The position numbers and the translations under genes were made by a program. From Chthoniobacteraceae bacterium (GTDB taxonomy: Bacteria > Verrucomicrobiota > Verrucomicrobiia > Chthoniobacterales > Chthoniobacteraceae): a stretch of DNA of 64,000 bases. The notes below the pieces were generated by a model that was not told the origin of the DNA, did no database searches, and saw nothing but the letters and a program-made list of their open reading frames with translations. Below are positions 18,189 through 37,414 of this stretch, piece by piece; within the stretch, counting starts at the first letter, position 1; each line of letters begins with the position of its first letter. The stretch lies in NCBI GenBank assembly GCA_037190965.1, contig JBBCKI010000034.1, positions 1-64,000 on the forward strand. The letters run 5' to 3'.

Positions 18189-18243
18189 CGTAAAGTGAGG
18201 CATTCCCCATGCGGGGGGTTGACATTGGATAACGTGATCCCCG

Positions 18244-19839: not shown

Positions 19840-20339
19840 AAACTATCCTATTCCTTTTCGCAGTCGCCGGGGTTGTCGTTCTGATTGCTCCGTTCATAAA
19901 GGATGATTTGGATGGAGGTGCGGCATGAGAGAGCTAATTCAAATAATCCTGATGATCCTGATTGCGTTGTCCGCTTGGGTGCTTATTGGCTACGGCAGGT
20001 TCTGCGTATTTCGCGAGCTTCACCCAACTGCGCCAGTGTGGATGTTCTTCCTTAAATAAATATGCAGGGGGATGTTATTCAATCACTCCAGGCACAAAGA
20101 CCCGGAAAGGAATGGGAAGAGTTCCAGAATATGATTCTGCGGAACGCCATAGGGAGTATTGCTTCTTCGGGTGAGATCCATCAACGGCCTGGCACGGTTC
20201 CTGAGGTGGTCGAAAATCGACAATGCACCCCCGGTAAGGAATCTATTACCCTTGGGGCACCCCATGCAGGTTCAAAGGCCAGCGAGAGCTTTTCTTATGA
20301 ATGAGAATTCTCAGAAACGTTTCACAAATTAATTAGGAA

Positions 20340-20852
20340 TTGGCCGCGCCCTCTACCAAAAAGCGCCGCGTCGGGAGGCCTTCGAATCCCGATGCTTTGA
20401 GCTTCGATAGTATGCTCGCAGCGTGTGAGCATATCGGCGGCGATTGCACGCCGGAGCTACTGCGCGCGGCCAAAAAGGCCGGATGCGGAGCTTTTCGCAA
20501 TGGCCGGATCTACGTCAAAGAACTGTCGGACTGGCTGAAAAACAATGAGGGCAAGACCGCAAATCCCTCCAGCAAGGAGGCGCTTCAGATTGAAAAGCTA
20601 AAAGAGGAAGTGGCCCGTCTTCGCCGGGAGAATGCCATTGAAGATAGCCGTTACGTTTCGATTGAGGAGCACAAGCAAATTAACGCCAAGATCGACGGAG
20701 AAATCCTGACAGCGCTCGATGACGTCTTCAGTGATGGTCTCATTCACGACCTCGGGGGGCAGGACTTCGCAGGGCGTCGTGCCATGATCGACGATGCGCT
20801 GGCTACCGTTCGCGAGAAGATCCATGCACCCTCTAGAGCTGAGCCGTCGTAG
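20340..20852 (+). CDS. Terminase small subunit (putative)
   Basis: Basic N-terminus plus coiled coil (IEKLKEEVARLRREN); overlaps the terL start. Confidence 0.7.
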   Translation: MAAPSTKKRRVGRPSNPDALSFDSMLAACEHIGGDCTPELLRAAKKAGCGAFRNGRIYVKELSDWLKNNEGKTANPSSKEALQIEKLKEEVARLRRENAIEDSRYVSIEEHKQINAKIDGEILTALDDVFSDGLIHDLGGQDFAGRRAMIDDALATVREKIHAPSRAEPS

Positions 20853-22686
20853 ATCGTATGCCCCGAAAGATAGGCGTTCTCAGCGGGAGTGGTCATCGGG
20901 AATCAAGCTGCCTGCGGCCTATTCGATCACGGGACCATTTAGTCTAGGTCGCTCCCCATGGCTGTATCGCCAGTGGGAAGCCCTTGATGATCCCCGTGTT
21001 CGGGAGATCACCTGCCTAGCTGCGCCTCGCACAGGCAAAACAATGGGCGCTGACATCTTTTTCGCCAAGAAGATGGCGACGGAGTCGATGCCGATGATGT
21101 TTAATCTCGGCAATGACAGCGATGCAGAGGAGCACGCCACGACGCGTTTTATTCCCCTTCTCCGCTCAATCCCTGACGTCAGACGTAAGTTCACTTCGAG
21201 CCCTCACGACGTTACCAAAAAGCTGATTCGTCTGATTGACGATAGCTTCATCGTCATTCAGGGGGTTGAGAACCCGAAGAACTTCGACGGGAAGGGCATC
21301 TGCTATCTGGTCAATGATGATTGCCACAAAGCCAAGAAAGGCAATCTCGGGAAAGCAAAGAGCCGAACGGGCGACTTCAGGCGCAAGTGCAAAATCATGA
21401 ACATCGCCCAGGGCGGGGTCGCTGGCGACGACATGGATATCGAGTATCGGCGAGGCACCCAAGAGGCATTCGGCTTTAGGTGCCCGAAGTGCGACAGGCT
21501 TCAGGCTTTTGAGTGGAGAACGTCAGAGGGCGAGTTTTGCATTAAATGGGACAAGAACGAAACCACGTTCCCGGGCGGTCGCTGGAACTATGACGAGATG
21601 GCGAAGACCATCCGCTATGAATGCTCCAATCCCGACTGCGATCAAATCTTTCGCGACACGGAGGGGGATAGGCGCATTCAGACCTACGACTGTGGCGAGT
21701 TTCTTCCTCCCGCCAATCCGTTTGCCCCACGCGACACCGTGAGCATCACTTGGAATCAACTCTGCGTGCCATGGGTCCCATGGAAAGAGATCGTCATCGA
21801 CTGGATTGAGGCTATGGAGGCCTACGAAATTGGCGACTCAACCAAGCTGATGAACTTCATTCAGCGGCGGCTCGCGCAGAATTGGGAAGACGGCGAGATG
21901 CGGTTCAAGATGGACGACGATGCACCGCAGAGCGACTATGAACTAGGCGACGCGTGGCCGGATGAGAAGGAACGTTTCCTGTCTGGCGACGTGCAGCAAA
22001 AGGGAGGTCGGCATATCATCTGCGTGGTCAGGGCATTTGCCGAGGATGGCCGGTCCAGAGCCCTTTGGGCAGGGAGGCTTGAGTCTTTCGAGGAGGTAAA
22101 AGCAAAGCAGGAGGAATTCCAAATTCTGGGAAAACGAGTTGGGTTGGATTGTGCTCACGACTCCTCGGAAGTAGAGGCGGCCTGCGCGAAGTACGGATGG
22201 ATCGCAATGCTCGGCAATGATGGGATTAGCTGGCCATGGGAGGATGAGAAAACCGGAGGAAAGATTCAAAAACCGTTCGACTCAGGGAAAAAGGTATGGA
22301 CTGGCCTTGGAACAAGGGAGCAGGCAAAGCACCGCTTTTGCTGGCGCTTCCTGTGGTCCCGCCCGGTATTCAGCGACATCCTTCAGCGCCGATTAAGCGG
22401 AAAGTCGATCTATTACGGCGTTCCTGGAGACATCGCGGCATCATCAAGCTACCGCGATCCAAATCACCCAGACGAAGAGAAATTCACCTCCTACTGGCCG
22501 CAAATGCGATCTTGGCAGAAGATCAATAAAAGGAACAAGGAGACCGGCGTCGAAAAGCCGTTGTGGACTCGCATCGGAAAGCGGCATGACCACTACCGCA
22601 GTGCCGAACTAATGGCGCTTGTGATGGCCGGGATTGCTGGCTGTCTTGGCGGGGAGTCGCACTCCCGCACAGAATCACAAAGTTGA
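20824..22686 (+). CDS. terL: Terminase large subunit, lambda GpA family
   Basis: SPWLY, Walker A PRTGKT, CPKC...YECSNPDC zinc motif, nuclease GDVQ and LDC motifs. Confidence 0.92.
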   Translation: MHPLELSRRRSYAPKDRRSQREWSSGIKLPAAYSITGPFSLGRSPWLYRQWEALDDPRVREITCLAAPRTGKTMGADIFFAKKMATESMPMMFNLGNDSDAEEHATTRFIPLLRSIPDVRRKFTSSPHDVTKKLIRLIDDSFIVIQGVENPKNFDGKGICYLVNDDCHKAKKGNLGKAKSRTGDFRRKCKIMNIAQGGVAGDDMDIEYRRGTQEAFGFRCPKCDRLQAFEWRTSEGEFCIKWDKNETTFPGGRWNYDEMAKTIRYECSNPDCDQIFRDTEGDRRIQTYDCGEFLPPANPFAPRDTVSITWNQLCVPWVPWKEIVIDWIEAMEAYEIGDSTKLMNFIQRRLAQNWEDGEMRFKMDDDAPQSDYELGDAWPDEKERFLSGDVQQKGGRHIICVVRAFAEDGRSRALWAGRLESFEEVKAKQEEFQILGKRVGLDCAHDSSEVEAACAKYGWIAMLGNDGISWPWEDEKTGGKIQKPFDSGKKVWTGLGTREQAKHRFCWRFLWSRPVFSDILQRRLSGKSIYYGVPGDIAASSSYRDPNHPDEEKFTSYWPQMRSWQKINKRNKETGVEKPLWTRIGKRHDHYRSAELMALVMAGIAGCLGGESHSRTESQS

Positions 22687-22706
22687 CACCCAGCCATCTT
22701 TTGATG
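22682..22706 (+). promoter_or_regulatory. Late-gene element GTTGACA-N15-ATG
   Basis: GTTGACA CCCAGCCATCTTTTG ATG. Confidence 0.6.
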
Positions 22707-22976
22707 GCGGCTTACCAACCCAGCGGGCTATTCAAATCACTCACACTTTCTCAAGTCGCAGCAATACAGGCTCGCGCCGTTGAGATGCTTTCCGCTGGAC
22801 AGGTGATCATGTCCGGATCCGTTGCCGGCCAAAACTTCACTGGCCAGCTTACAATGCCAGTGAACGAGGTGCTCGCAGAGTGCAATTACGCGCTTCAGTT
22901 TTTGACTGGATCAGGCCTGGTTCGCCGAGTTCGTTCCGACTTCAGCAACCGCAGGGGGGAGCGCTTTGAATACTAA
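22704..22976 (+). CDS. Head-tail joining protein, gpW-like (positional)
   Basis: Small ORF between terL and portal; the ATG at 22704 is preferred. Confidence 0.65.
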   Translation: MAAYQPSGLFKSLTLSQVAAIQARAVEMLSAGQVIMSGSVAGQNFTGQLTMPVNEVLAECNYALQFLTGSGLVRRVRSDFSNRRGERFEY

Positions 22977-24489
22977 GGCCCCCGCGATCAATCGCAATTG
23001 GCTTGAGAGAGCCATTGACGGCACAGTCAAGGCGTTCTCCCCTGCACGGGCCGTGAGGCGGCATAATGCTCGCACCGCGCTGGCCCATCGCGCAGCCCGC
23101 CCGAGCGGAGACCGAGAAATGGCGTCAAGGACGCCAATGCACCCGAATAGTTCCGTTGTCCAGCGGGATCGCATCTCGTTGATGATGGAGGCCCGCGATC
23201 TTTCCGAGAACGTCGGTTTCGTTAAAGGGCACCTCCGGAAGGTGCAACTCTACGGAGCTGGAACACTCTCTTACGAGCCCGATACAGGCGATTCCGGCAT
23301 GGATTCGGAAATCTCTGGCTTCCTTGCCAATTGGATGCCGCGTGCTCATGTTGGCCTCTCGCACACTTTCACGCGACTGATTCAGCTTTCATTGGTCTCC
23401 ATGACCCGCGACGGAGATTCAATGCTGGTATGGGTCCGAGACGAAGACGCCCTGCGTCTACAGATCGTCGAGGCTGACCAGATTGGAGAGCTCCACTCGT
23501 ACAGAAACACCCCGGGCTACGTTTCCGGTGTATATATCAACCCTGACTCCAGCAAGATCGGGTACAAGGTATATGACAGGATTGCCGACATGCAGTATGG
23601 CAATCCTCAGTTTATTCCTGTCCAGGATGCGCTATTCTTTGCTGACCCGATCCGAAACGCGGTCCGATCGATCACCGCCTACGATACATCAATCGAGAAC
23701 ATCAGGGATAAGTTCGAGATCCTTGGATATGAAAAGCTCGTAGTCAAAGACATCTCCACAGAGGGAATCGTCACTTACACTCAGCGCGCCGGGGCAGATC
23801 GATTTGATTTTGACGACACAAAGCAAAGTGGCGATGGTGTCCAATCCTATATTCGTCGAATTGGCGGGGTCGTACGTGAGTACATGGGGATCGGCGAGAA
23901 GTTCGATGTCATCCCCCACAACAGACCCAGCCCGACATTCCAAGGCTTCATAAAGACCCTAGATATCGAGGACTGCCACGGCCTTAATTTGCCTTATGGC
24001 TTCCTGGTTGACCCATCAGAGCCAGGCGGTGCCGCAGTGCGAATCGTGGCCCACATGGCAAACCGAGAGTTTGGGCGCGTTCAGAATGACGTTCTCACGC
24101 CGAACTTAAACACGATCCGCGACATTGTTCTTCTGGATGCCGTAGATCGAGGGGAAATCTCACGGCATCGAGGAATTCGTAACGGAACGTGGATGTTTCC
24201 CCCTCCTCCTACCGCAGATATCCAGCGGGAGAGCGACATCGCCATCCGCGAAACGCGCGCTGGCCTCAGCACATACACCGAGCAATTCGCAATCTACGGC
24301 CAAAATCGCGCGCGCCAGTGGAAGATCAAGCAGCAGGAAATCATTGATCGCCATACGCTAGCGCATGAAGCGACTCAGGCCCTTCAGGCAAAGGGAATCA
24401 ATGTCACCGTCTCGCCGGATGAAATCGCCGCAATGAGCGAAAACCCTGCTGCGGCCCAGAATCCGAGCGCTCCAGCAAAGAAGGCATAG
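22966..24489 (+). CDS. Portal protein, lambda family
   Basis: ARDLSEN, RDGD, LQIVEADQI and RPSPTFQGF motifs; 507 aa. Confidence 0.92.
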   Translation: MNTKAPAINRNWLERAIDGTVKAFSPARAVRRHNARTALAHRAARPSGDREMASRTPMHPNSSVVQRDRISLMMEARDLSENVGFVKGHLRKVQLYGAGTLSYEPDTGDSGMDSEISGFLANWMPRAHVGLSHTFTRLIQLSLVSMTRDGDSMLVWVRDEDALRLQIVEADQIGELHSYRNTPGYVSGVYINPDSSKIGYKVYDRIADMQYGNPQFIPVQDALFFADPIRNAVRSITAYDTSIENIRDKFEILGYEKLVVKDISTEGIVTYTQRAGADRFDFDDTKQSGDGVQSYIRRIGGVVREYMGIGEKFDVIPHNRPSPTFQGFIKTLDIEDCHGLNLPYGFLVDPSEPGGAAVRIVAHMANREFGRVQNDVLTPNLNTIRDIVLLDAVDRGEISRHRGIRNGTWMFPPPPTADIQRESDIAIRETRAGLSTYTEQFAIYGQNRARQWKIKQQEIIDRHTLAHEATQALQAKGINVTVSPDEIAAMSENPAAAQNPSAPAKKA

Positions 24490-24514
24490 GTTGACACGCC
24501 TCACCTACTGAATG
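24490..24514 (+). promoter_or_regulatory. Late-gene element GTTGACA-N15-ATG
   Basis: GTTGACA CGCCTCACCTACTGA ATG. Confidence 0.6.
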
Positions 24515-25444
24515 CCCAAAGAATCGAAACCGCTCACGCAATTCCGCGCGCTTCCAGGCCCTGGCGCAATCGATCCCGAGGCTGGACTCATTAAAGGCGT
24601 CTCGGTTATGACCATCGGCCCGGCATTGGGCCACGGGATGGTGATTGATCGCAAAGGGCTTGAGCAATGCTTTAGCGCCTGCCAAAGCTGCGGTGACGAC
24701 GGGGTTAGCCTGATCATCCGTCATAGCGATGAAAATGGCGTTGAACTGAAAGACATCGTCGGCGCAGTCAAGAATTTCCGAATAGATGGCGAGCAGCTTT
24801 TAGGCGACGCGTATTTGCTGGATAGCGCGCCGGAAAGAACTCGAATTTTGGAGATGGCAGCAAAGCTCCCGAAAAACTTCGGATTGTCCGTGGAGACGAC
24901 CGGAGAACACGAAGCAGTACCTAACTCCAAGCAGAAACTTTACCGATGCGATGGCATTGACGCTATCGCGCTAGTGCCGAAACCGGCGGCCAACAAGACC
25001 GGGATATTCAGCGAAGTTGACAAACCCCAATCAAGTATGGACCCCGAAGAGATCAAAAACGCCATTGTCGAAGGCGTAGCCGCCGCAGTTGAGCCGATCA
25101 AAGATGAGCTTTCCAAGCTCGGAGATCGACTCTCAAAACTCGAAGAGCCCGAAAAGAAAGACGATGAGCCGAAGACCGACGAAGAGAAGCTGGAGAAGCT
25201 TGCAGCGAAGGCCGCAGAAGAGGGAGCCGAGAAGGCGCTCACGCGGTTTGCTTCTCAGATTGGCGTGAAGCGAGCGCCCAAGGCCGATGACAACCACAAC
25301 TCCCATCGAAAGCTCACGAGGTTTGAGGCAAAGGTCGAAGAGCTGACCAAGCTCGGCGTACGCAATCCCAATGCCGTGGCCGTCCATAAGCATCCTGATC
25401 TCTACGAGGAGTACCGTATCGGCCTCGAGAAAGGGGGCAACTAA
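24512..25444 (+). CDS. Prohead protease with C-terminal scaffold domain
   Basis: GPALGH...RH...FGLSV...LVPKPAAN protease-like N-terminal half and a charged helical C-terminal half. Confidence 0.75.
   Translation: MPKESKPLTQFRALPGPGAIDPEAGLIKGVSVMTIGPALGHGMVIDRKGLEQCFSACQSCGDDGVSLIIRHSDENGVELKDIVGAVKNFRIDGEQLLGDAYLLDSAPERTRILEMAAKLPKNFGLSVETTGEHEAVPNSKQKLYRCDGIDAIALVPKPAANKTGIFSEVDKPQSSMDPEEIKNAIVEGVAAAVEPIKDELSKLGDRLSKLEEPEKKDDEPKTDEEKLEKLAAKAAEEGAEKALTRFASQIGVKRAPKADDNHNSHRKLTRFEAKVEELTKLGVRNPNAVAVHKHPDLYEEYRIGLEKGGN
25016..25039 (+). promoter_or_regulatory. Internal late-gene element GTTGACA-N14-ATG
   Basis: GTTGACA AACCCCAATCAAGT ATG; the ATG at 25037 is in frame with the protease gene. 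Confidence 0.55.
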
Positions 25445-25824
25445 TGGGAAATTCCTCCCAACGCATTGAGGGCAGCTTTATCACTGTCGCGGTCGGCGCA
25501 TCCCCCATCTCGGCGTACAGGCGAATCAAGCTCGGAACCGATGGCAAGTATGTTGTTGCCGGTTTGACTGACTACGGGGATGCGGTGATTGAGCGCGACG
25601 CAAAAGCCGATGAAGTTGGCGTACCTGCCCGCCTCGTTAACGCCGAGGGTACGCAGTTCGGAATCGCAGCTGGGGCAATAGCCTCCGCAGGCCTTACGCT
25701 GTATTCAGCTGCCAGCGGGGAAGTCAGCACCACGCAGGGCACGAACGCTGTGATTGTCGGTAAATCGAGTGCTGCCGCCTCCAACGGCGACGTCACAACC
25801 TACATCGGAAAATCGGTCGCCTAA
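25444..25824 (+). CDS. Head decoration / capsid cement protein (DUF2190-like)
   Basis: 126-aa Gly/Ala-rich beta protein directly before the major capsid gene. Confidence 0.7.
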   Translation: MGNSSQRIEGSFITVAVGASPISAYRRIKLGTDGKYVVAGLTDYGDAVIERDAKADEVGVPARLVNAEGTQFGIAAGAIASAGLTLYSAASGEVSTTQGTNAVIVGKSSAAASNGDVTTYIGKSVA

Positions 25825-25838
25825 CCTTAGGATAAACT

Positions 25839-26822
25839 ATGTCTTTTCGTTCCACTATTTCCGCAGCGCCTCGCGAGGAGATTAGCGCCGCCATCATGGA
25901 GGGCGCGTCTCTAAACACCCAACTGATTTGGGATAAGGTGTTGCCGCCCTTGGGGCTCAATGATCGCACCGCTCACCTGCCGAAGCTAACCATTGCAGGC
26001 GCAGAGCTGATGCGAATCGTAACGGAGATCACCGCGCCTGGCACGAATGTGCCGCGCATGACGGCAACCATTGGCGACTTCGAGATGGCCACGGTTAACC
26101 GCAAGCAGGAAATTGGCATCCCGCTTGAGGATGAGATGACCTACGCCAAGTTGTTCAGCCTGGAGACGTTTTACTCCCGGATCCTCGGGCAGAAGATGCT
26201 ATCGCTTACGCTGGAATACTACGCAGCCCAGGCGCTCTTCAGCACTGCAAACTTCGGTTCGGCCACGAACTCTCTTGTTGCCTATACCAGTGGCAACAGC
26301 GATACAATCTCGCTTATCGCCGATATCCTCGCCGCGCTCAACCGCGTGAGAGACAACGGGGAAGAGCCCGACACCGTGATTATCCCGGCGCTCGTTCTGG
26401 AGCGTTGCAGCCAAGGCAAGCTCGTTAAGGAGTTTGTTGTTGGCCAGCTTTCTTCCGGGTCCGACGTGACGGCCACGTCGATTGAAAACGCCATCAATAA
26501 GCAGGGCTACAACATCAAGGTGCATGTCGGACGCGCTCAGTACAACTCAGCGCCCAAAGGCAAAAAGGCCCTCGCCCGCATCTGGCAGAATACCTACATC
26601 TGGGTTGGCCGGGCTGGTTACCGCAACAACACCAGCGATGAGGGCATTCCGATCATTGACGGCGTCGGAGCTACTGCATTCTGGGAGCCTTTCGGCCTGA
26701 TGAGCGGCGAGACCTACGAAGACAAGCCCAAAGATGAGCAGGTTGTTCGCGGCAAGACGTCGGGAACCCCCGCAATCTTCAATTCCAACGCTGGAACCCT
26801 CATCGCAACGCAGTTCTCCTAA
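25839..26822 (+). CDS. Major capsid protein (HK97 fold, lambda gpE-like)
   Basis: 327 aa, gene position, EPDTVIIP and IW-type motifs. Confidence 0.8.
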   Translation: MSFRSTISAAPREEISAAIMEGASLNTQLIWDKVLPPLGLNDRTAHLPKLTIAGAELMRIVTEITAPGTNVPRMTATIGDFEMATVNRKQEIGIPLEDEMTYAKLFSLETFYSRILGQKMLSLTLEYYAAQALFSTANFGSATNSLVAYTSGNSDTISLIADILAALNRVRDNGEEPDTVIIPALVLERCSQGKLVKEFVVGQLSSGSDVTATSIENAINKQGYNIKVHVGRAQYNSAPKGKKALARIWQNTYIWVGRAGYRNNTSDEGIPIIDGVGATAFWEPFGLMSGETYEDKPKDEQVVRGKTSGTPAIFNSNAGTLIATQFS

Positions 26823-26825
26823 GCC

Positions 26826-27032
26826 ATGTCAAAAGACCAACAGAAAGCACCCGAGCCCGCAAAGGCAGAAGCCAAGGAGGTTTTCTACGAGAATCTTCGC
26901 GATGGCGAACTCTACGCCCTTGAGATCGTAGAGGGCGATCCCCACGGAAAGACGCACAAGGCTCGCAACGAAGCGCACTTTTGGGAAGGCACGATGGCCG
27001 AGTTCAAGGCGAGCTTCGACCGAGTCGACTAA
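26826..27032 (+). CDS. Small head-module protein
   Basis: 68-aa ORF 3 nt after the capsid stop. Confidence 0.65.
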   Translation: MSKDQQKAPEPAKAEAKEVFYENLRDGELYALEIVEGDPHGKTHKARNEAHFWEGTMAEFKASFDRVD

Positions 27033-27051
27033 GTAGCTTCCTCCGCACCAC

Positions 27052-27094
27052 GCGCCGGGCCGGGTTTTGCATGTTTCCCCGGCTCGGCGCTTTT
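27052..27094 (+). terminator. Intrinsic terminator-like hairpin after the head genes
   Basis: GCGCCGGGCCGGG...CCCGGCTCGGCGC followed by TTTT. Confidence 0.65.
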
Positions 27095-27099
27095 GCTTT

Positions 27100-27423
27100 A
27101 TGTCGACTGAGTTTCAAAACTTTATCAAGGCGGGATTCCGCGCATCCTCCCGGGTATTTTCGAATACGGATGACCCGAAGGTTGTTGAGTTCGGAGACAA
27201 GACCGCCGAGATCGTCAACGGCACATTGCGGGCATCCCGCGAGATGAAGAACGCAGGAATGCAGACCAACTTTGATGAAAGCTGTGTTCTGATTCTGGAG
27301 GAATTCCAAGCGCTCGGGGCGACATTCAACGATGTGGTTAAGATCGGTGAAAGAATGCTCGAGATCAAAGATATTGAATACGCATCTCCCCTGGTTGTGC
27401 TGATGCTGAAGGCACCAAGATGA
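27100..27423 (+). CDS. Head-tail connector protein (putative)
   Basis: Position and size; ATG at 27100. Confidence 0.55.
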   Translation: MSTEFQNFIKAGFRASSRVFSNTDDPKVVEFGDKTAEIVNGTLRASREMKNAGMQTNFDESCVLILEEFQALGATFNDVVKIGERMLEIKDIEYASPLVVLMLKAPR

Positions 27424-28220
27424 GTAGAGAGATAGACGCCAGTAGGTTTTTCAAGATGTGCAGCGATCTTTCCCGGATCAGCGGAAGGGATTTTGAGCAT
27501 GTAGTAGTTGATCAGGTTGGTCAATTGATGGGGGTTTGTATTCGATACACGTACTCATCGAAGGCCGGCACGCTGAAAACAAGGGTTGAATTCCAGAATC
27601 GGAGTGCCACCGCCGATAATGAGGGGCGTCTAAAATCTCGCTATTATCGCACCAAAGGGGGAGCAGAGTGGCTTTCTGAGCGAAACGACTCAGATGAACG
27701 CACCAGCTATCTTATGAATGGCGGGGAGAGGCGTTGGAACGCATCAAGATGGGCTCGGTATCAAGTGCTCAAGCAGATCCTTGCTGATAAGCAGATTGAT
27801 CCATCATCAGCCGTTCAGTCTCGCGGGTCGGTAAAGAGGACTTGGTATGATATTGCGGCGGCGCTAGGTCAGGAAGCAGCCAACAGGACCAATGCGCCGA
27901 GTTATGTTACTGGAGCCCGGACGTTCCACGGCAAAGAGCATCCCCAGATTTCTAAAGCCGAAAGGCTCATCGAGGCGGCGGCCTTCTTTGTCGAAATCAC
28001 CAACGAAAGCAGGATCCTCACCGGATCAAGGAGCCTTCGGCTCAACGGCGGGAGGGACGATAGGTCGAGGATGAAGATCTCCGGGGGGCTCGACGGATTC
28101 GCCATCCTCCAGCGTGCAATCAACACACGCGCAAACGCATTTAGAACAGAGACCCGCAATGGTGTCTTCGAGGACATTGAAACTCGTGCAAAACGTTACC
28201 CAGGAATTTTTACAACATGA
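27420..28220 (+). CDS. Neck / tail-completion protein (putative)
   Basis: Basic 266-aa ORF, ATGA-coupled, in the connector position. Confidence 0.5.
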   Translation: MSREIDASRFFKMCSDLSRISGRDFEHVVVDQVGQLMGVCIRYTYSSKAGTLKTRVEFQNRSATADNEGRLKSRYYRTKGGAEWLSERNDSDERTSYLMNGGERRWNASRWARYQVLKQILADKQIDPSSAVQSRGSVKRTWYDIAAALGQEAANRTNAPSYVTGARTFHGKEHPQISKAERLIEAAAFFVEITNESRILTGSRSLRLNGGRDDRSRMKISGGLDGFAILQRAINTRANAFRTETRNGVFEDIETRAKRYPGIFTT

Positions 28221-28693
28221 CCGCGCCAGACATTGACACCCTGTTCATGCAGGAAGACCACGTTGAGGGAGCGTCCCAGCAGATCCTAAAATCCCTCGAC
28301 ATCAAAGCATTCAAGCAATGCGACCCCGAGGAAATCGGGCTCGCTCCCTACGTCAATATTCAGCTCGCCCTCGGCGGGGCAACGGGCCATTTTGGACAAG
28401 ATAGGAAAGGGACGCTCTGGCACGACGCATGGAGCGCGACACTCATCTTTGAGATCGTCACGAAGCGTTCAAAGGCGCAAATCGAGCATAAGACATATCG
28501 GGCGCACATCCGGCGCTTGATGCAATATGCAGAAGGTCTGTTCACCGAGGAAAGGCTCCCCTATCACGTTATCACCAAGATTCAAGAAGCAGGAACCCGG
28601 CCAACCATCGAGAACGGTGATGGCCTTGACATCTCGCAGGTGAGTTTCTCCTGCATCGTCTCGGTTCGCCAGAACGCATGGCCGGAAGTCTAG
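28217..28693 (+). CDS. Tail terminator-like protein (putative)
   Basis: 158-aa ORF directly before the tail tube gene. Confidence 0.5.
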   Translation: MTAPDIDTLFMQEDHVEGASQQILKSLDIKAFKQCDPEEIGLAPYVNIQLALGGATGHFGQDRKGTLWHDAWSATLIFEIVTKRSKAQIEHKTYRAHIRRLMQYAEGLFTEERLPYHVITKIQEAGTRPTIENGDGLDISQVSFSCIVSVRQNAWPEV

Positions 28694-28718
28694 TTGACAC
28701 AATGCCATAGTTACTATG
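28693..28718 (+). promoter_or_regulatory. Late-gene element GTTGACA-N16-ATG
   Basis: GTTGACA CAATGCCATAGTTACT ATG. Confidence 0.6.
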
Positions 28719-29129
28719 GCCGACGAAGAACCACCCGAAGAGCCAGGAGACGAAGAGCCTATGCCTGAACCCACTGGAACCCATAATGACGGCGGCCTCG
28801 TATGGGGCTCGCAAATAATCACAATTGGCGCAAAAACCTATGTTGCCGATGACATCAGCGTACAGTTTCCGGTAAAGGAGATCACCCGGACGAATGAAAA
28901 TGACGTCGAGAACGGAGACGTGCTAATCGAGGGGGCATTCACCGGAAGCGCGACATTGCAGGTGCTTAATTCAACAACCCCTGTTCCTCCTGTCGCCGGG
29001 GCGTTCACGATCACATCTCTCAACAGCGTAACGCTGAATTGCAAGGTCAAAGAGCCAGGCGTTAAGTTCGGGAAGGGCGATGAGGCGAAAATCCCGATCA
29101 CCTTTAAGAAGCGTCACGCGGGTTCGTAA
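28716..29129 (+). CDS. Tail tube protein (putative)
   Basis: Beta-rich 137-aa protein before the chaperone and tape measure genes; no sheath gene seen. Confidence 0.6.
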   Translation: MADEEPPEEPGDEEPMPEPTGTHNDGGLVWGSQIITIGAKTYVADDISVQFPVKEITRTNENDVENGDVLIEGAFTGSATLQVLNSTTPVPPVAGAFTITSLNSVTLNCKVKEPGVKFGKGDEAKIPITFKKRHAGS

Positions 29130-29135
29130 ATCCCG

Positions 29136-29750
29136 ATGATCCTGGATCAAATACCAGGCTTCAAGAAGAAGGTCGAGGCGGCCCGGGAGGAGGAGTCTAA
29201 ATTACGAGATTTTGCCTATACCGGGCTGCCTGAGACGATATGCGGCGTGGACGTTAAGCAGTTCACGCCGCGCCATTTTCTGAACTGCCTACTGGCCAAA
29301 TCTCCGTTCTTTGTTGGTGGAATTCCATCGCCGGTTGATGTTGGTCTTTTCTTGTGGATCGTCTCGCCAGGATTCAAGCCGTTTGATCTACAGGCGCGGA
29401 ATGAGTTTCTAGAAACAGTTATCGAGGTTCCGTATGCCGACGCAATTGCGGAGATTGACGCGTACATCGAGCGGGCCTTCTTTGATCGCCCATCTGGCGG
29501 AAGTTCTCGCCCGGCAGTCGCCAGTTTCCTGGCGTCGCTCGTCCATGAGATAGCCAGCGCTTACGGCTGGTATATTGATCAGATTTTAGACGCGCCGTTC
29601 GCATTGCTTTACCAACAGTTGCGAATGATTGCGCGCGAGGAAGATCCCCGCAGGCCGTTCCCCAATCGGCTTTCCGATAAAGTGGTCAGGGAATTGGTTT
29701 TGAAGCATCAGAAAAAGCAGAAGCGAATCGCCAAAGAGGAAGCTAAGTAA
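29136..29750 (+). CDS. Tail assembly chaperone (putative)
   Basis: Position; IASAYGW...ILDAP motif. Confidence 0.55.
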   Translation: MILDQIPGFKKKVEAAREEESKLRDFAYTGLPETICGVDVKQFTPRHFLNCLLAKSPFFVGGIPSPVDVGLFLWIVSPGFKPFDLQARNEFLETVIEVPYADAIAEIDAYIERAFFDRPSGGSSRPAVASFLASLVHEIASAYGWYIDQILDAPFALLYQQLRMIAREEDPRRPFPNRLSDKVVRELVLKHQKKQKRIAKEEAK

Positions 29751-31765
29751 TGGCCGCATCAGACGCAATTATTGCCCGCATGGGGCTGGATACTGAGGGC
29801 ATCGCCAAAGGTATGCGAGAGGCTGCCGCGAAGGTTGGCATTGGAGGAAAGCAGGTTGAGCAATCCATCAATCGGGTTACGCAAGTAGCTAAAAAGGCCG
29901 CAGAGGAACAGAGGAAAGCCGCCCAAGACCTGGGATCCGGGGTGTCTGGTATGACTCAAACGCTTCTTTCAGCGCAAGGCGCGACAGATGCATTTACCCA
30001 GTCTGCAACGGCGCTTGCGGACAGCTTGAAGCTAGGTCTTGGGGCATTAGTGGCTGTTGAAATTGGGGCAAAGATAATCCAGAAAATTCAACAGGTTGGC
30101 CAAGAAGCCGAGGCGTTAAAGCAAAAGATCGCTGATGCGCTGAAGCCTGGCGCGCCAACTGAGTTCACATCTCTGGAAGAGCTAAGATCGCAAATGCAAA
30201 AGACGGCAGAGGCCGCTTCGGCATTGAGCGATAGAGACTCGGGAGGAGTAGGTAATTTCTTTTCCGACATGTTCGAGGGGATGGGTGCGGCATGGGAGGG
30301 TGCAAAGGTCGAGCTTGGGTTAGAGAAAGACGGGCTCGGGGTAGGAAAGGGCATGCGCAGCGAGGGGGCGAACGCGCGCCGAGATCGTGAACATATTCGG
30401 CTGCTTGAGCGGAACGAGCAGCTTCTTGATGCCGCTCATAAGAAAGAGATGAACCTTGCGGATATCGAAGAGAAGCGGCTGCGCTTTAGCGAGAAGGCAG
30501 CGGCACTCGCCGAGATCCAGAACAAGTTCGGAGGAATGATCGATGCCGCTCAGAAATCCGATGACGGCAGCAAAATGATTCCCGCCCTCCAGCGCCAGAA
30601 AGCGCTGGCCGAGGAAGCAGCCAATCGTCAATTCGAAGCTCAGGAGCGCGCCCTTGTTTCGGAACAAGAGATCCTTGCCATCAAGAAGCGTGGTGCCGAC
30701 ACCGAGGTTGATATTGCCAGCGCCCGCGTGATGGCGGCTCGGGCCGAACTGGACGCGGGCGGCCCGGAAGAGAAGCAGAAAGCCAATGCGCTTGCGTTGG
30801 AGATCGCAGAGCATGAACTCAAGATCACGGAGCGGAAGACAGAGGAGCTACGCGCGCAGCTTTCATTAATTGAAAAGGTCGCCAACGCCCAAGTCAGTCC
30901 CGAGGAGAAGGCGCGAATGCTCAATGAGGGCGAAGGCGAAAACCTCCGCTCCCGCATCAACGACCCGCGCGTCGGAGATGACGAGAAACGAACGCTTGCT
31001 GTAGAGCTTGCCAAGAATGAAGAGCAGGCGCGTGCTCTCGCGAAGGCGACCCGGGAGCAGGGCTATCAGGTGCAGAACTCCGAGATCGATGCAACAACCG
31101 GGCGCGGTGAAGCCGAGCAGATCGAGTCCGTCCGACGCAAGCTGGAAGTCGCAAGACAAAAGGCCGGGGATCTGTATGCGCCAGGCTCTGGAGCGAGCGA
31201 GGCAGAGAAACAGGCGGCAAACGCTGCCGTCAACCAGCTCGTGAAAACTTACGATGATCTCATCGAGAGGCGTGAGATCATCGTTGATGTCGTAAAGGCC
31301 GAAACCGAGATCATGGAGGCCCAGCTAAAACACGCAGATAGCCTTGCTGGAAAGCTCCAGGTGCAAATGCGATATGAGCAGCAGATCAGGCAGGCCAAGA
31401 AGGACGGAAACGACGAACTCGCGAAACAACTCCAGAAACAACAACAGCTTGCGCTTTATGCTAAGGGGCTGGAAAACTTCAAAAGAACGCCCCAGCAGCG
31501 AGCCGCCGACAAAGAGAAGCAACGCGCCGGGAAGAGGGATGAAGACAGGTATGACAGGGAGGTTGAGGAGGTAAAAAGAGGCCTGCAAAAAGGAGTCAAG
31601 TACCATGGAGGCCGAAAGGGCGATATTGCCGAAGACATCAAAAACGGAACGCTGGGAAGCAAGGGCGCACCGGAAACCTCGGAGTTCAAATCCGCACTAT
31701 CCGGAACAGAGAAAAAGCTAGACACAATCATTAGCTACATCGGAGGGGGGGTCACGAATCAATGA
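29750..31765 (+). CDS. Tail tape measure protein
   Basis: IIARMGLDT N-terminus and a long Ala/Glu/Lys/Gln-rich helical sequence; 671 aa. Confidence 0.8.
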   Translation: MAASDAIIARMGLDTEGIAKGMREAAAKVGIGGKQVEQSINRVTQVAKKAAEEQRKAAQDLGSGVSGMTQTLLSAQGATDAFTQSATALADSLKLGLGALVAVEIGAKIIQKIQQVGQEAEALKQKIADALKPGAPTEFTSLEELRSQMQKTAEAASALSDRDSGGVGNFFSDMFEGMGAAWEGAKVELGLEKDGLGVGKGMRSEGANARRDREHIRLLERNEQLLDAAHKKEMNLADIEEKRLRFSEKAAALAEIQNKFGGMIDAAQKSDDGSKMIPALQRQKALAEEAANRQFEAQERALVSEQEILAIKKRGADTEVDIASARVMAARAELDAGGPEEKQKANALALEIAEHELKITERKTEELRAQLSLIEKVANAQVSPEEKARMLNEGEGENLRSRINDPRVGDDEKRTLAVELAKNEEQARALAKATREQGYQVQNSEIDATTGRGEAEQIESVRRKLEVARQKAGDLYAPGSGASEAEKQAANAAVNQLVKTYDDLIERREIIVDVVKAETEIMEAQLKHADSLAGKLQVQMRYEQQIRQAKKDGNDELAKQLQKQQQLALYAKGLENFKRTPQQRAADKEKQRAGKRDEDRYDREVEEVKRGLQKGVKYHGGRKGDIAEDIKNGTLGSKGAPETSEFKSALSGTEKKLDTIISYIGGGVTNQ

Positions 31766-33379
31766 GTGTGCCTAGCCCAATCTACGACCATGACCCGTCT
31801 TCGGGAGCGTGGACGACTGCCACTCAGAACGGGCCAACTGTTACCTCATTTGATCCGCTGTACCGCGTCAAGCAGTACAAGGTTCCAATGACACAGCGCG
31901 CGGGGAATTTCTCCAGGGTCGCCATCGGCACGGCTGGACCCGGCGATAGCTATCTCTACGAAGAAACTACGCCGCGCGCAGTCGGGGCCGACATCATCGA
32001 ATGGGATCGACTCTATACTGAGGTTCCGCCCGACCGCTACGAGGCTGAAAGCTTTGTCTACAATCAGCAGATTAACCTTGGCGGCAAGATCACCGAAATT
32101 CCGATCCCGGTCAACAGCGTCATTAAGTACAGCTATTTCAATACATCTGATCCCACCTCGATTACCACCGAGAAAGCCTATAAGGCCGTTTACGTTGAAT
32201 CAGAGGGAAGCTTCATCTTTTACGAGGTTGGCAGCATCCCGTCAGGGTCAACACGGCTTGCCGAAGATGAAAGCGTTTCACGCTGGAAAGGTGACATCTG
32301 GGAAATCAAGCGGCGGGAAATCTCAAACTCATCTCTGTTGGGAGCTAGCTAAATGGCCATTGAAAGAGTACTAGCCGGACAGTCTCCAACCCTGCTCCAC
32401 GCCGATAAGGCGAACGAGTTGATTGATGCCGTAAACTCGCTGAAGGCGATGACGATTTCACCCACGACCGCCGGGAAGGTCGTTCATAGCGACGGGAATA
32501 CCGTTATTCAGATTACCGCCGGGGGAGGAGGCGGGGGGGAGGGCGAGTGGGAGGAATGGACCGTATGGCATCTCGGCGCTCCAGGGAAACAAAACGTTAG
32601 AGTCGAAGGTCCAGCTGCTCCGATTTGATATGGCTTACTGTCATGGACAAGGATTACCGTGCCTGATTAAGGACTACGACACCTTATCTAGCTTTGATAA
32701 GAACAATTACTATTGTTTTGGCCTAACCTTCAAGCAGGCGTTCGACCTCTATTATAGAGTTAAAACTTTTGAATTTCGTGGTGAAGCCCGGGTTTGGGAT
32801 GGGCAGAATTCAGAGGATCCAGAATACTTTACTGTTGCGATTTCAACCACAGTTAAAGCATATGAGTTTGACTCCGGGGATATAATCGACGCCGAGCCAT
32901 CCTTAGTTGGAGATCACAATTTCATAGGAGAACAGTACGATGCGCCAACCGATTCTAGGCTTTCTGCCTATCTTTGCTATGAGCCGTGGAGCAATCCCGC
33001 ATACAACGCAAAGTTTGCCTTAAAAGATGGAACAACCTACTACCCGAGAACGTCGGTAGGTCTACAGATCGCCGTGGGAGGGGGCGGTTATTATGTCGCG
33101 CCTTTCGCTGGTTCATATGATGTAGGCATTTTTGACTTTGGCCCATTTGGAACATGGCCACTCACTACCGATTTACCTCCTCTTTATATTCCTTCGGCGT
33201 CGATGTCGTTGCTTCCCACTGAATGGTGGGAATACGACCCCGGCGACGCGGATCCTTACCCAGGAAAAGACGGCGCTGGCCCTGTCTATGACAAAGACAC
33301 GGGCGAACAGCTCCGTGATCCCTTCAGCATCGTCAAGCGCGGCGACGGGACATTCTACAACCCGAACTACGCTCCGTAG
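31762..33379 (+). CDS. Three tail-tip region proteins (31762-32352, 32353-32628, 32630-33379)
   Basis: Contiguous ORFs after the tape measure gene. Confidence 0.6.
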
Positions 33380-33402
33380 TTGACACCGCGCCATAATCAA
33401 TG
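33379..33402 (+). promoter_or_regulatory. Late-gene element GTTGACA-N14-ATG
   Basis: GTTGACA CCGCGCCATAATCA ATG. Confidence 0.6.
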
Positions 33403-34920
33403 CCGACCGTCAATATCGACCTCAAGGACATTTTTGAGAGCGGATTTAAGCGCACTATCTCTTTCCGATCCACATCCGCGCCCTACGTCAAGGGGCAATC
33501 CTTGGTCTCTTCGGAGGTGCGCGAGGTTCCAACGGATGCCGATGGGCTCGCGACGATCACGCTCCAGCCCGGCAACTACGAGGTTACGTTTGCTGCGTTC
33601 TCCAACAAGGACAAGCTGATCATCGGTGTGCCGGATGATGATCAGACCTATCCATTGACGGCGCTGATCAATGCCGGGACCACCGTTCCCATCCCTCCCG
33701 TCTACCAAGGTCAAGCCGCCACGGTCGAGATTGCCGAAACCATCACGGGCGAACCGATGACCGACGCGATTGTTGAAAACGTCGGCAATGAGAATGCAGC
33801 GCGGCTTCGGTTTACGATACCTCGGGGAGATCGTGGGTGGAGAGGGTTTCGCGGTTACGCCGCGACTGTAGCTATTGGAGACGTGGAGACCGTTGCGCCA
33901 GGCGAAGATGCCGAGGTAATCAATACCGGTAACGCGCACGATGCGGTGTTTGATTTCAAGATCCCGAAAGGCAACACGGGCGACATTGCGACCATTGAGG
34001 TCGGCAGTGTCACAACTGGCGCGCCGGGGAGCGATGCCATCGTTTCGAACAGCGGAACGAGCGAAGCCGCCGTGCTCGACTTTGAGATTCCGCGCGGCGA
34101 CACCGGAGCGGCGGCTACAATTGCCGTAGGAACCGTAACGACCGGCGCGGCTGGAAGCTCTGCGGCTGTCACCAATTCAGGCACGAGCGGGGCCGCTACT
34201 TTCAATTTCACCATTCCGCGTGGGAATACCGGGGCAACTGGTAACATTGCCCTCGTCGCAGCATATGACGCCACCGGCGACATCACCCTGCCAAACTCCT
34301 CAACGTGGCATCAGATCATCAATCCTAACGGCGCACAGCGCAACGTCACGCTGCCCGTGATCGCCGTGGCCCCGGTTGGTGATCAGGTCGCAATCGGCTG
34401 GAGTCAAAAAATCGAAAACTCTGGCGCAAGCGGCCTTGCCTTGATCGTCAAAAACTCAGCAGGGATCGAGCAGGCCAGGATCGAAAACGGCTCTGTCGCG
34501 CTCTTCATCGCGCGCGGTGCGCCGGGGCTCTGGACAGTGCATCACGAACCCGAGAATCAGCCGTTCGTCAAACATTTCTACGGGATCGACCTAAAGCAGG
34601 CCAACGGCACCGTCATTGACCTATTCACCGTTCCGACCGGTTTACGGTACATTGTCGAGTCGGCATGTGTGATCCTGACGGGCTATAACGGCTCGGGGTC
34701 GCCCGTGGTATCGCTAATTGAATCCAGTGCAGGGGTGGCAATTACGGGCAACCAGACCGTCACCGCGTCCACGGTTGGCCGGTGCATCGTGTTTTACCCA
34801 TCTAGTTCGTTCCCGGCTGTTGCGCCTGGAAACAAGGTTCAGTTCAAGATCGTCACGGCGAGCGCCGCGACAGAGTACACAGTCAACCTCAGCGTCAACG
34901 GCTACTACATCCCGGCATGA
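33400..34920 (+). CDS. Tail fibre protein with four ~42-aa ATIxVGxVTTG...FxIPRGxxG repeats
   Basis: Repeats with short collagen-like linkers and a beta-rich C-terminus. Confidence 0.75.
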   Translation: MPTVNIDLKDIFESGFKRTISFRSTSAPYVKGQSLVSSEVREVPTDADGLATITLQPGNYEVTFAAFSNKDKLIIGVPDDDQTYPLTALINAGTTVPIPPVYQGQAATVEIAETITGEPMTDAIVENVGNENAARLRFTIPRGDRGWRGFRGYAATVAIGDVETVAPGEDAEVINTGNAHDAVFDFKIPKGNTGDIATIEVGSVTTGAPGSDAIVSNSGTSEAAVLDFEIPRGDTGAAATIAVGTVTTGAAGSSAAVTNSGTSGAATFNFTIPRGNTGATGNIALVAAYDATGDITLPNSSTWHQIINPNGAQRNVTLPVIAVAPVGDQVAIGWSQKIENSGASGLALIVKNSAGIEQARIENGSVALFIARGAPGLWTVHHEPENQPFVKHFYGIDLKQANGTVIDLFTVPTGLRYIVESACVILTGYNGSGSPVVSLIESSAGVAITGNQTVTASTVGRCIVFYPSSSFPAVAPGNKVQFKIVTASAATEYTVNLSVNGYYIPA

Positions 34921-35693
34921 TTCTGACCAACTCGCCAGAAACGCTAGCCCGGGCCGATATGCTGGCCTACAAGGGTCAACTCAAGATCAAGGGTAAAACC
35001 CTCGATACGGCGGCACAGGACCGGCTTTTTGGCGGTGCTCGCGATCTTTACGCCGCGTTTGGGCGAATGGATTTTGCCTCCTTTCGCGACAACGTCGGAT
35101 CGGGAGACATCGCTTACACCTTTCATCGCAAGGTGTTCTCTCTGATTAGCTCACCCTCATGGGTTAGCGACGGCATCGAAAACAGCGCCACCGGATCCAT
35201 TCGCTCCACGGATTGGGTGTGGAATCCGACAAATCACACAATCCTTGTCGGATTCCAGCAGACGAATTTTACAGACCTTCAGACGTTGGCGACTTGCGGC
35301 GATGGCCTTTCAGGGATTGCGGCCGGTCGCAGGACGAACCTCCGCAGCGATTCGGCTTCGGCATCGTCTACATTTGTGTTCAACGGTGCTTTCACTCAAT
35401 ACTCAAGTTCCTGGGGGACGTATTCCTTGGCCGGATATTCATACGGATCGGGGGGAATCAGGCTGCATCGGGATTCGCTAACAAATACATTAACGGCATC
35501 CCCGGCTAGTTTGGATGGGGGAACTCCAACGAATCGAATTGTGCTCATGGCTTCTGACAGCGCGGACGGATCCCGAAGCCAGTTTTTCAAGGGGCGCGCA
35601 AGGTTTGCGATACTGTTTCCTCGGCAGCTAACCAGCGCCGAATACCTAGCGTTTCGGGCCATCTATAACACCTACTTCGCAGCAGGACTATGA
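34917..35693 (+). CDS. Tail-associated protein, possible lectin/LamG-like fold
   Basis: Ser/Thr/Gly-rich beta protein ending FFKGRARFAILFPRQLTSAE. Confidence 0.55.
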   Translation: MILTNSPETLARADMLAYKGQLKIKGKTLDTAAQDRLFGGARDLYAAFGRMDFASFRDNVGSGDIAYTFHRKVFSLISSPSWVSDGIENSATGSIRSTDWVWNPTNHTILVGFQQTNFTDLQTLATCGDGLSGIAAGRRTNLRSDSASASSTFVFNGAFTQYSSSWGTYSLAGYSYGSGGIRLHRDSLTNTLTASPASLDGGTPTNRIVLMASDSADGSRSQFFKGRARFAILFPRQLTSAEYLAFRAIYNTYFAAGL

Positions 35694-36082
35694 ATTGGAT
35701 AGAATGCGCTGTGTTTTTCCCATCTCGGCTTTTTGTCCCGGATGGGTCGCCACCTGAGTTTTTGCTTCAGTATCTCCAGGAGTATTTTGATCGCTATAGC
35801 GTCGATACCAGCCTTGAGCCGCAGACCATCGACGGCGTTCCGGTCGTTCAGTCTTATGCCGAACGTGAGCCGGTGATTGCGTCAATTTTTGGCGATGACC
35901 TCCCACGGAAGCGGTTTCGAACCGCATCGATTTTTAGAGGAACCATCCCATTCGAGCCAAGCGATGGAGGTTATATCCTTCGCTGTTGCTGGCCGGAAAC
36001 GTTCATCAACGACATCAACCGAGACCCGCAGCCCGAGCCGGAATGGTTTGAGGGGGTCCGCATCGTTGACACCAACTCTTGA
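35690..36082 (+). CDS. Phage hypothetical protein
   Basis: ATGA-coupled 130-aa ORF. Confidence 0.6.
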   Translation: MNWIECAVFFPSRLFVPDGSPPEFLLQYLQEYFDRYSVDTSLEPQTIDGVPVVQSYAEREPVIASIFGDDLPRKRFRTASIFRGTIPFEPSDGGYILRCCWPETFINDINRDPQPEPEWFEGVRIVDTNS

Positions 36083-36091
36083 TAGACACCC

Positions 36092-36430
36092 ATGACGCAA
36101 GACACATCCAGTATCACGGATCTGATTAATTTGGTTTCATCGGTCGGCCCTAACGGGTTGCTGGTGATCGCCATCATCTATTTCAAGCGAATCTCTGATA
36201 AACGAGAGAGGGAGCGCGATGATCAGATTGGTAAACAGGAAAAGCGGATAGCGGACCTTGAGACGAAGCAGGAGGAATCTCGCCTAAGGGAAGAAAAGAA
36301 TTCTCGGGAGCATACGGCCAGGGAGGAGAAGAACACTCAAGAGTACAAGGTGTTAGCCGAGAGGGTTACCGACGTCATGGATCAAACCCGGAGCGTCATG
36401 CAGCAGGTTTTAGCCAAGCTCGAAAAATGA
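36092..36430 (+). CDS. Holin-like protein (single TM plus coiled coil)
   Basis: GPNGLLVIAIIYF helix; first gene of the lysis cassette. Confidence 0.55.
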   Translation: MTQDTSSITDLINLVSSVGPNGLLVIAIIYFKRISDKRERERDDQIGKQEKRIADLETKQEESRLREEKNSREHTAREEKNTQEYKVLAERVTDVMDQTRSVMQQVLAKLEK

Positions 36431-36603
36431 AAACGATACCCATTATTGCAATCATCGCATTTCTCACCGGCTGTCAAACCATCACCGACGAAACCGGGAC
36501 TCATCGGCGGTACGTGGGGCCCGGTGTGTCCGTCACGTTCGACCTCGGCGGGGCTGACCTTGGATTCACCATTGCTAAACCTTTGGAGGATGCATCCAAG
36601 TGA
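36427..36603 (+). CDS. 58-aa lipoprotein (spanin-like candidate)
   Basis: MKTIPIIAIIAFLTGC lipobox; overlaps both neighbours; below the ORF-track cutoff. Confidence 0.7.
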   Translation: MKTIPIIAIIAFLTGCQTITDETGTHRRYVGPGVSVTFDLGGADLGFTIAKPLEDASK

Positions 36604-37139
36604 TCGACATCAAAAAAATCCAAACCGGGCTGAGGCCGTTTTACACGGGCGCAATCGATGGCGATTGGGGTCCGAAGACGCAGGCGGCAATGGACACCTA
36701 TCAGGCCTTGCGTGGCGAGGCTGTTCCGTCGTGGCTCAAGGTCGCGGCGGCAGAGCTGGGCGTCAAGGAGATCGCCGGGAGTCAGCACAACCCGAGAATC
36801 ATCGAGTATCACAAATCCACCGACCTCGGCGCGACAACCGACGAAACCGCGTGGTGTTCCAGTTTCGCCAATTTTTGCATGGCGCGCGCTGGCCAGTCCC
36901 ATGGCAGGAGCGCGGCGGCTCGCTCGTGGCTGCAATGGGGGGATGCCTTGCCAAGACCGCGTTACGGCTGCGTCGTTGTGCTCAAGCGCGGCACCTCCAG
37001 TTGGGAGGGGCACGTCGGGTTTCTGGTCGCCGAGGATGTTGACAGCCTGGCGCTACTGGGCGGCAACCAGGGCAACCGGGTCAAGGTGTCGGTTTACCGG
37101 CGCGCAGATTTGCTTGGGTTTCGCTGGAGCAAGCCTTAG
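36600..37139 (+). CDS. Endolysin: PG-binding-like N-terminus plus TIGR02594 (NlpC/P60-like) domain
   Basis: YTGAIDGDWGPKT, DETAWCSSFAN, GHVGF and LGGNQ motifs. Confidence 0.88.
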   Translation: MIDIKKIQTGLRPFYTGAIDGDWGPKTQAAMDTYQALRGEAVPSWLKVAAAELGVKEIAGSQHNPRIIEYHKSTDLGATTDETAWCSSFANFCMARAGQSHGRSAAARSWLQWGDALPRPRYGCVVVLKRGTSSWEGHVGFLVAEDVDSLALLGGNQGNRVKVSVYRRADLLGFRWSKP

Positions 37140-37390: not shown

Positions 37391-37414
37391 AAGCATGCAT
37401 CATAAAAACAATGC

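Follow-up and report, generated by a model that had tools for sequence, protein, structure and literature searches.

The 64,000-nucleotide (nt) window analysed here (contig JBBCKI010000034.1 of a Chthoniobacteraceae bacterium) carries a temperate prophage in which the word GTTGACA recurs a short and nearly constant distance ahead of start codons. The original prediction for this window had read these copies as a phage-specific compact promoter giving leaderless mRNAs for late genes or, alternatively, as an RNA-level signal. The prophage runs in the order integrase, recombination and replication genes, lambda-type terminase and portal, head, tail and lysis. Hidden Markov model (HMM) searches of the window's proteins matched the terminase, portal and major head protein, and assigned the open reading frame (ORF) at 33400 to a minor tail family; the gpW-like, protease/scaffold, tail tube and holin ORFs had no match in these searches and are labelled by position. 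Below, d is the number of nucleotides between TTGACA and the start codon (d15 = N15). The features concerned are:

1453..38413, plus strand: temperate prophage, integrase to P63C-domain gene; ends approximate
18218..18246, plus strand: GTTGACA-N19-ATG at the helix-turn-helix (HTH) gene; a copy absent from the list in the original prediction
18244..18741, plus strand: 165-aa HTH protein of a phage family without a name, upstream of the terminase; candidate activator, a putative role
18722..19339, plus strand: conserved gene next to the HTH gene (longest ORF 18581-19339, ATG probably at 18722); no family match; second candidate cofactor
22682..22706, plus strand: GTTGACA-N15-ATG (ATG 22704), gpW-like gene; overlaps the end of terL; position kept in related prophages
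24490..24514, plus strand: GTTGACA-N15-ATG (ATG 24512), protease/scaffold ORF; orthologue in prophage G137 at d16
25016..25039, plus strand: GTTGACA-N14-ATG (ATG 25037) within the protease ORF, an in-frame internal scaffold start; spacing by direct count
28693..28718, plus strand: GTTGACA-N16-ATG (ATG 28716), putative tail tube gene; orthologue in G137 at d15
33379..33402, plus strand: GTTGACA-N14-ATG (ATG 33400), tail fibre/minor tail gene; orthologue in G137 at d15
36065..36094, plus strand: GTTGACA-N20-ATG (ATG 36092), holin-like gene; longer-leader variant

A recount reproduced exactly the six late coordinates and spacings (15, 15, 14, 16, 14 and 20 nt) on which the original prediction was built. 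Six of the seven plus-strand late copies precede an ATG, as it had stated, and the seventh (37038) has no ATG within 60 nt. Its further observations, that three copies (22682, 28693 and 33379) share GTTGACAC-N3-GCCAT and that the spacers lack a Shine-Dalgarno (SD) sequence, also hold, an AGGA, GGAG or GAGG core lying 3–16 nt before the start at 0/6 of these motif starts. Within the window the motif heads gene units; it is missing from genes that overlap their upstream neighbour, and from the major capsid gene. The site at 25016 would head a scaffold-decoration-major capsid unit.

The raw number of GTTGACA copies is only modestly above chance (12 in the window; shuffled sequences average 5.75, and two in 100 of them reach 12); the signal is position relative to start codons. 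On the plus strand between 20,000 and 37,400, five of nine TTGACA copies fall at d13–17 of 23 listed starts (binomial P ~1.6e-9, a value that is somewhat flattering because the internal ATG 25037 was listed on account of its motif). The original prediction had proposed a comparison of distances in prophage and host. In the host genome outside the prophage, 0/197 GTTGACA copies lie 12–22 nt before a first-ATG ORF (at least 100 codons), and among 835 copies of TTGACA six lie at d13–17 and 11 at d33–34, the latter bump being near the canonical leaderless distance. The three host-type promoters that it had described as normally spaced do, by eye, show -10-like hexamers where expected: TTGACC-17-TAGTAT at 4563, TTGACG-17-TAAAAT at 43036 and TTGACA-17/18-GTAAAT/TAAATT at 63813. 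The host primary sigma factor has the usual TRERIRQ helix.

Two further sites in the window resemble the element. At 20321-20342, TTCACA (one mismatch) lies 13 nt ahead of the TTG that opens a putative terS ORF, and is possibly a weak site. At 6950-6964, two opposed TTGACA copies one base apart form a palindrome inside a ParB-like gene (6526-7248); the palindrome encodes part of LSTVDT, has no start codon after it and is possibly a binding site, on prediction. Seven similar cases, with opposed copies 1–3 nt apart, occur in the related loci examined.

Occurrence in related phages

Portal matches were found in 32 of 301 genomes of the order, and 24 of the 29 non-self portal loci have an ATG site at d13–17, their portals being mostly 20–31% identical. 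As in the window, these sites often stand before the gpW-like gene and before the internal scaffold start. Across 40 related-prophage stretches (687 kb), 98/227 TTGACA copies lie at d13–17 of an ATG ORF, compared with 4/227 in the reverse-complement control, and the distribution has a hard lower edge (one site at d12, 42 at d13); the original prediction had made enrichment and fixed spacing in related phages a test of its proposal, and both are present. Loci chosen by the HTH protein rather than by the motif gave a similar picture, with 49/155 copies at d13–17, none at d10–12, and sites in 26 of 55 loci. The pooled 276 ATG sites fall into 94 gene families, and GTG starts share the d13 peak. 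At the internal scaffold starts of relatives the spacing is d14 (10 sites), d15 (6) or d17 (7), which places the hexamer in two reading frames; the constraint thus acts on nucleotides.

The comparison also redraws the element in two respects. The core word is TTGACA, the leading G of the heptamer originally described being a clade preference. The assignment to late genes stands as an enrichment: sites number 0.09–0.52 per 10 kb ahead of the HTH gene, against 2.5–2.9 per 10 kb at 4–10 kb downstream of it (5- to 10-fold denser, counted over 213 redundant loci), yet compact sites also precede ParB/methyltransferase, Sak4 and exonuclease genes, and the element is not late-only.

Of the 169 HTH loci in named genomes, the best 80 comprise 76 from Verrucomicrobia, one from Kiritimatiellae and three from other taxa on short contigs. 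Phages with the same terminase family from outside the Planctomycetes-Verrucomicrobia-Chlamydiae (PVC) group (FP_Epona and SNW-1) show no peak at d13–17. The feature is real and phylum-wide among these phages. Single-protein searches found no match for the capsid in viral contigs, for the HTH protein by word index, or for portal and HTH protein in annotated phages, and profiles were needed. Literature searches aimed at the element, which covered few subscription journals and no supplements, found no published description.

The GCCAT box shared by three copies in the window was considered as a conserved second box and rejected; it is a subfamily feature that is not kept across the family. The pattern GTTGACAC-N3-GCCAT-N4-8-ATG was matched at 58 loci in a scan; about nine of these look like true multi-site phages (L005, L006, L008, L010, L017, L019, L039 and L043 are among them); many of the remainder belong to one redundant unrelated family. 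Three fragments (L006, L010 and L043) combine the compact motif with genes that by eye are sheath- or baseplate-like, and the motif may cross tail types.

Anatomy of the element

Little besides the hexamer is conserved. The spacer is 67% G+C and unconserved, and the upstream 40 nt have no conserved position except the base directly before the hexamer, which is rarely C. TAnnnT 16–18 nt after the hexamer occurs in 0/94 families, a count that is partly constrained by the start codon. At d13 sites the final two spacer bases are G (76%) and C (83%), followed by the A of ATG. Where the ATG lies at 15 nt or more, the G keeps its place at hexamer+12 (26.4 of 54 families) rather than moving to ATG-2 (14.0, against a background of 15.4), and a pyrimidine-purine (Y-R) step stays at 13|14 after the hexamer (21.2 versus 13.7). 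The G-Y-R pattern is tied to the hexamer and not to the ATG when the ATG is further away, more weakly than at d13. Bacterial start sites carry YR at -1/+1; for Akkermansia, PMC4782308 reports this step together with 10% leaderless starts. In ten loci (mostly one orthologous pair), opposed copies stand 2–9 nt apart, each 13–17 nt from its own start codon.

Since there is no -10 box and little SD sequence, and the G-Y-R step is fixed to the hexamer and copies can diverge, the hexamer is most likely a compact promoter core at about -19 to -14 that yields near-leaderless mRNA, a judgement taken over all promoter models together. The promoter proposed in the original prediction survives in this form: its prophage specificity, the 13-nt minimum, the G-Y-R step and the divergent pairs all fit, with start sites that are predicted from sequence. 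The start site would be fixed ~14 nt after the hexamer, giving leaders of 0–4 nt, and of up to ~7 nt at the holin-like gene.

A candidate activator and the reader of the hexamer

ORF 18244-18741 had no match above the cut-off in Pfam and none in PHROGs, and belongs to a family of 590 clusters (E up to 1e-10) whose nearest Atlas clusters are viral hypothetical proteins. The confident predicted fold (pLDDT 89) comprises a long helix, a helix-turn-helix and a basic C-terminal helix. The family is present in the flanks of 10 portal-selected prophage regions and in nine of 10 further motif-bearing genomes, two of these matches being weak and the genome without a match being 76% complete; in five of those genomes the gene is on the same contig as the portal and 27–64 kb upstream of it. 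Conversely, the motif occurs in nine of 12 HTH-selected prophage regions, and five motif-selected viral loci hold the HTH gene. A cultured carrier is Chthoniobacter flavus Ellin428, whose prophage region (L270) contains the HTH gene; the provirus record matching it shows compact sites ahead of protease (GTG start, d13), scaffold (d17), head-closure-like (d13) and holin-like (d17) genes. Two cultured phages, P8625 and the Akkermansia phage Moulinsart, have neither the compact motif nor an HTH match. The neighbouring gene at 18722..19339 itself stands behind the motif in many relatives.

The copy at 18218 makes self-activation of the HTH gene a possibility on sequence grounds, one that would not be general, as only seven placements of TTGACA (d17–38) were seen ahead of the 62 family genes examined. 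In three prophages (L208:3658, L212:3269 and L089 near 12130) a TTGACA copy precedes the HTH gene by the canonical 30 nt with no clear -10 box, and the late genes of the same prophages have the 13–17 nt spacing. Some HTH members among P0002, P0006, P0007, P0010, L119:11727-13004 and L123:15835-16956 have two matched stretches (tandem domains), and one ORF among them is apparently fused to a domain like that of the downstream neighbour.

The HTH family is not demonstrably sigma-4-like: hhalign gave 21–54% to host sigma-4 profiles against 93% to the LacI control, the match to RpoD had E 0.042, the best Foldseek hit (sigma32) had E 0.13, and in a VIA comparison Z was 5.0 to sigma32 residues 198–280, the best Z being 5.8. 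Modelled as a complex with the beta flap, beta-prime clamp and sigma regions 2–3 of the host enzyme (region 4 omitted), the HTH protein scored 0.00 with a mark of 0.32, a result that counts neither way.

TTGACA is the exact sigma-70 -35 consensus, and it remains constant while the recognition helix of the HTH protein varies widely: TRAAVSKR, SKQAFHYH, TRALVSHY, TRMAVDKV and TRATPHQC all accompany the same word. The minimum spacing of 13 equals 1+6+6 if the ATG is taken as a putative +1, which puts the hexamer directly upstream of the -10 position. A structural precedent exists in Q-loading at lambda pR', where sigma region 4 (R4) leaves the flap tip and binds a -35-like site directly upstream of the -10 position, displacing region 3 (R3), as described in the accessible text of PMC9388147; that site corresponds to the position TTGACA would hold here. 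We therefore favour, at about even probability, a reading in which host sigma region 4 is relocated by the phage HTH protein at the compact promoters. Host RNA polymerase with its primary sigma would transcribe the sites only once the HTH protein (18244-18741) has been made. The HTH protein would remodel the holoenzyme such that region 4 reads TTGACA directly upstream of the melted region, in the normal place of region 3, and tight binding of the hexamer would compensate for the missing -10 consensus. Many short units, one of them starting inside the protease gene, would then set the dose of high-copy virion proteins without antitermination.

Several points weigh against this reading. Lambda Q acts at an early-elongation pause and depends on an upstream promoter, a Q-binding element and a -10-like element (PMC9388147). 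TAnnnT occurs inside the spacer in 2.4/94 families (family-weighted) and there is no -10 consensus, which together with the G+C-rich spacer leaves DNA melting unexplained. An SD-like core is found in the spacer of about 12/94 families, and some compact sites precede middle-type genes. Which base stands immediately 5' of the hexamer goes with the HTH clade (G in 59% of 171 sites, T in 93% of 56 and T in 82% of 71), which suggests contact by a phage protein, and the lineage G376/G502, with a divergent HTH member, has (C/T)GCAAC at d14–16 and no late TTGACA sites. An HTH-bearing region (G323, 57 kb read) has no site, five motif-selected records that are 41–64% complete gave weak HTH matches only (E 2e-4 to 1e-3), and three shorter motif-selected fragments gave none. 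The co-occurrence is among kin and not independent, and the empty HTH search of P8625 and Moulinsart ran without a positive control.

Some of these points would suit an alternative in which the HTH protein itself reads the compact promoter, at the place of sigma region 3, and recruits host RNA polymerase, in effect a P1 Lpa-like site moved closer. The flank base follows three HTH clades; in a genus that is probably Akkermansia (g86), one HTH clade is accompanied by TT-TTGACA at d13–14 in 19/20 loci. The (C/T)GCAAC sites of G376/G502 precede five late genes (gpW, scaffold, head closure and two more) and point toward a phage protein that touches or reads the site, and the HTH model has a basic C-terminal helix. 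Lpa binds a sequence centred at -22 in P1 late promoters, according to the accessible text of PMC3152322. Against this, very different recognition helices accompany one hexamer, the GCAAC case is a single lineage whose helix resembles those of TTGACA-using members, agreement to the letter with the host -35 word would be coincidental, and flank and clade are confounded with host and kinship. We regard direct reading by the HTH protein as unlikely, though it is the leading rival, and it explains the melting of the G+C-rich DNA no better.

Strict co-variation of helix and motif was considered separately and is not established, there being a single GCAAC lineage and a flank effect confounded by kinship. 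The GCAAC word is presumably ECF-like, resembling the -35 elements of ECF sigma factors. In the G376/G502 loci (L223-L225, L489), four of five GCAAC sites end in CATTTGT or CATAAGT; in this prophage the HTH gene is inverted between the tail genes and terS, and the head genes precede the terminase.

A compact promoter activated in some other way, by the neighbour gene at 18722-19339, by a further phage protein, or by some host factor or condition of lytic growth, is improbable. The neighbour is nearly as conserved as the HTH gene, some motif-rich fragments have no clear HTH match, and the co-occurrence may reflect shared phage ancestry alone; but the host genome does not use the compact spacing, the neighbour gene often lies behind the motif, as a target would, and the HTH gene sits upstream of the terminase, the usual seat of late activators.

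A shade less probable again is the RNA-level alternative of the original prediction, in which UUGACA would enhance translation from the border of the ribosome footprint, or would guide a processing event that creates leaderless 5' ends. The narrow distance to the start codon and the scarcity of SD sequences fit ribosome positioning, cleavage at a fixed distance could also yield a sharp edge, and internal starts could be translational. However, the divergent pairs would need overlapping transcripts from unseen promoters, of which the upstream 40 nt bear no conserved trace; the major capsid gene, with the greatest need for translation, has no motif in the window; the position of the G-Y-R step follows the hexamer; and P8625 carries the identical word at the spacing of a canonical promoter.

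It is very improbable that the copies are ordinary -35 elements whose start sites lie within the genes, or that the pattern arose by chance or from peptide constraints, for although TTGACA is the normal -35 word and the host itself shows a small bump at d33–34 (11/835), the counts largely refute these readings, through the missing TAnnnT (itself partly constrained by the start codon), the near-empty reverse-complement control and the internal sites in two reading frames.

Three other features of the prophage were recorded. The P63C-domain gene (37415-38413) closes it, after the lysis region. A DnaC-like helicase loader (17509-18188) is apparently split into two overlapping ORFs in different frames. 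At ~27050-27099, between the capsid unit and a head-closure-like gene, a GC-rich inverted repeat followed by a T-rich run looks like a terminator closing the scaffold-capsid unit, as judged by eye on the unfolded sequence.

Known systems and significance

The element is neither a canonical sigma-70 promoter nor an SD signal nor a Q site. It shares the -35 TTGACA of the first, but the -10 at 16–18 nt is absent and a start codon stands at 13–17 nt instead. Unlike lambda Q sites it lacks a -10 consensus and conservation in the upstream 40 nt, there is no Q match, and it is repeated at many gene starts. It would work like other phage-activated late promoter sets, but without a -10 hexamer and with another position and word. 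P1 late promoters keep a -10 hexamer, which the compact element lacks. In the P1 Lpa/SspA system, too, several late promoters carry a phage activator site near the start (PMC3152322, as far as accessible); the element here is centred near -16.5 if ATG = +1, matches the host -35 word and has leaderless starts that are predicted. The P1 promoters depend on a phage activator and a host coactivator; for the element here, the co-occurrence of motif and HTH gene is what bears on the former. The Thermus phages Lalka27a and YS40 are reported, in the accessible part of bioRxiv 10.64898/2026.04.20.719267, to have dense, mostly leaderless and divergent late promoters without antitermination, for which a phage factor was proposed. 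The many late copies and the divergent pairs (as motif copies) seen here are alike; the Thermus promoters differ in that TAGGGT, a -10 hexamer, precedes the start by six bases and a C stands at -25 (same source), whereas here there is a -35 word and no -10.

The Verrucomicrobia phage P8625 (NC_029047.1), of the same terminase family, also has exact TTGACA before late genes, but the distance is a canonical 29–30 nt, an inverted repeat covers the -10 position and the HTH family gave no match. Its sites at 5412, 10736 and 15558 (locus L184), with TTGACA at 30 nt and a GTATC...GATAC-type inverted repeat, represent a different, undescribed late promoter design. As in the RinA/ArpU/Ltr systems of Gram-positive phages, where a small late-gene regulator is encoded upstream of the terminase, the HTH gene lies upstream of terS; RinA acts at one promoter upstream of terS, in the text of PMC3152322 that could be consulted, and here there are many internal sites per phage. 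The HTH protein had no match above the cut-off to these regulator families in Pfam or PHROGs.

Two things are expected of promoters read by sigma-70 factors: a -10 element, which melting should require, and a spacing of ~17 bp from -35 to -10. The Verrucomicrobiota phages may, with a probability that we place somewhat below even, use a new initiation mode in which a small HTH protein enables transcription from a lone -35 word set against the bubble, with no -10 element. The same tentative reading would include a lambda Q-type relocation of sigma region 4 turned into a promoter, and one lineage using GCAAC. What is new here is the candidate HTH activator, the (C/T)GCAAC lineage at the same spacing, and lambda Q as a structural precedent.

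If true, a TTGACA-only promoter at -19 to -14 with a GC-rich melting zone would break both sigma-70 expectations and would illustrate the redirection of the host enzyme by a single phage protein. Now that a candidate factor and a cultured carrier have been named, the question is directly testable. A unit of ~20 bp that should be silent without the phage factor is a possible orthogonal expression switch for Verrucomicrobia. The element is widespread in phages of a phylum abundant in soil, freshwater and the gut, and in their genomes of mostly hypothetical genes it marks gene starts, including hidden internal scaffold starts.

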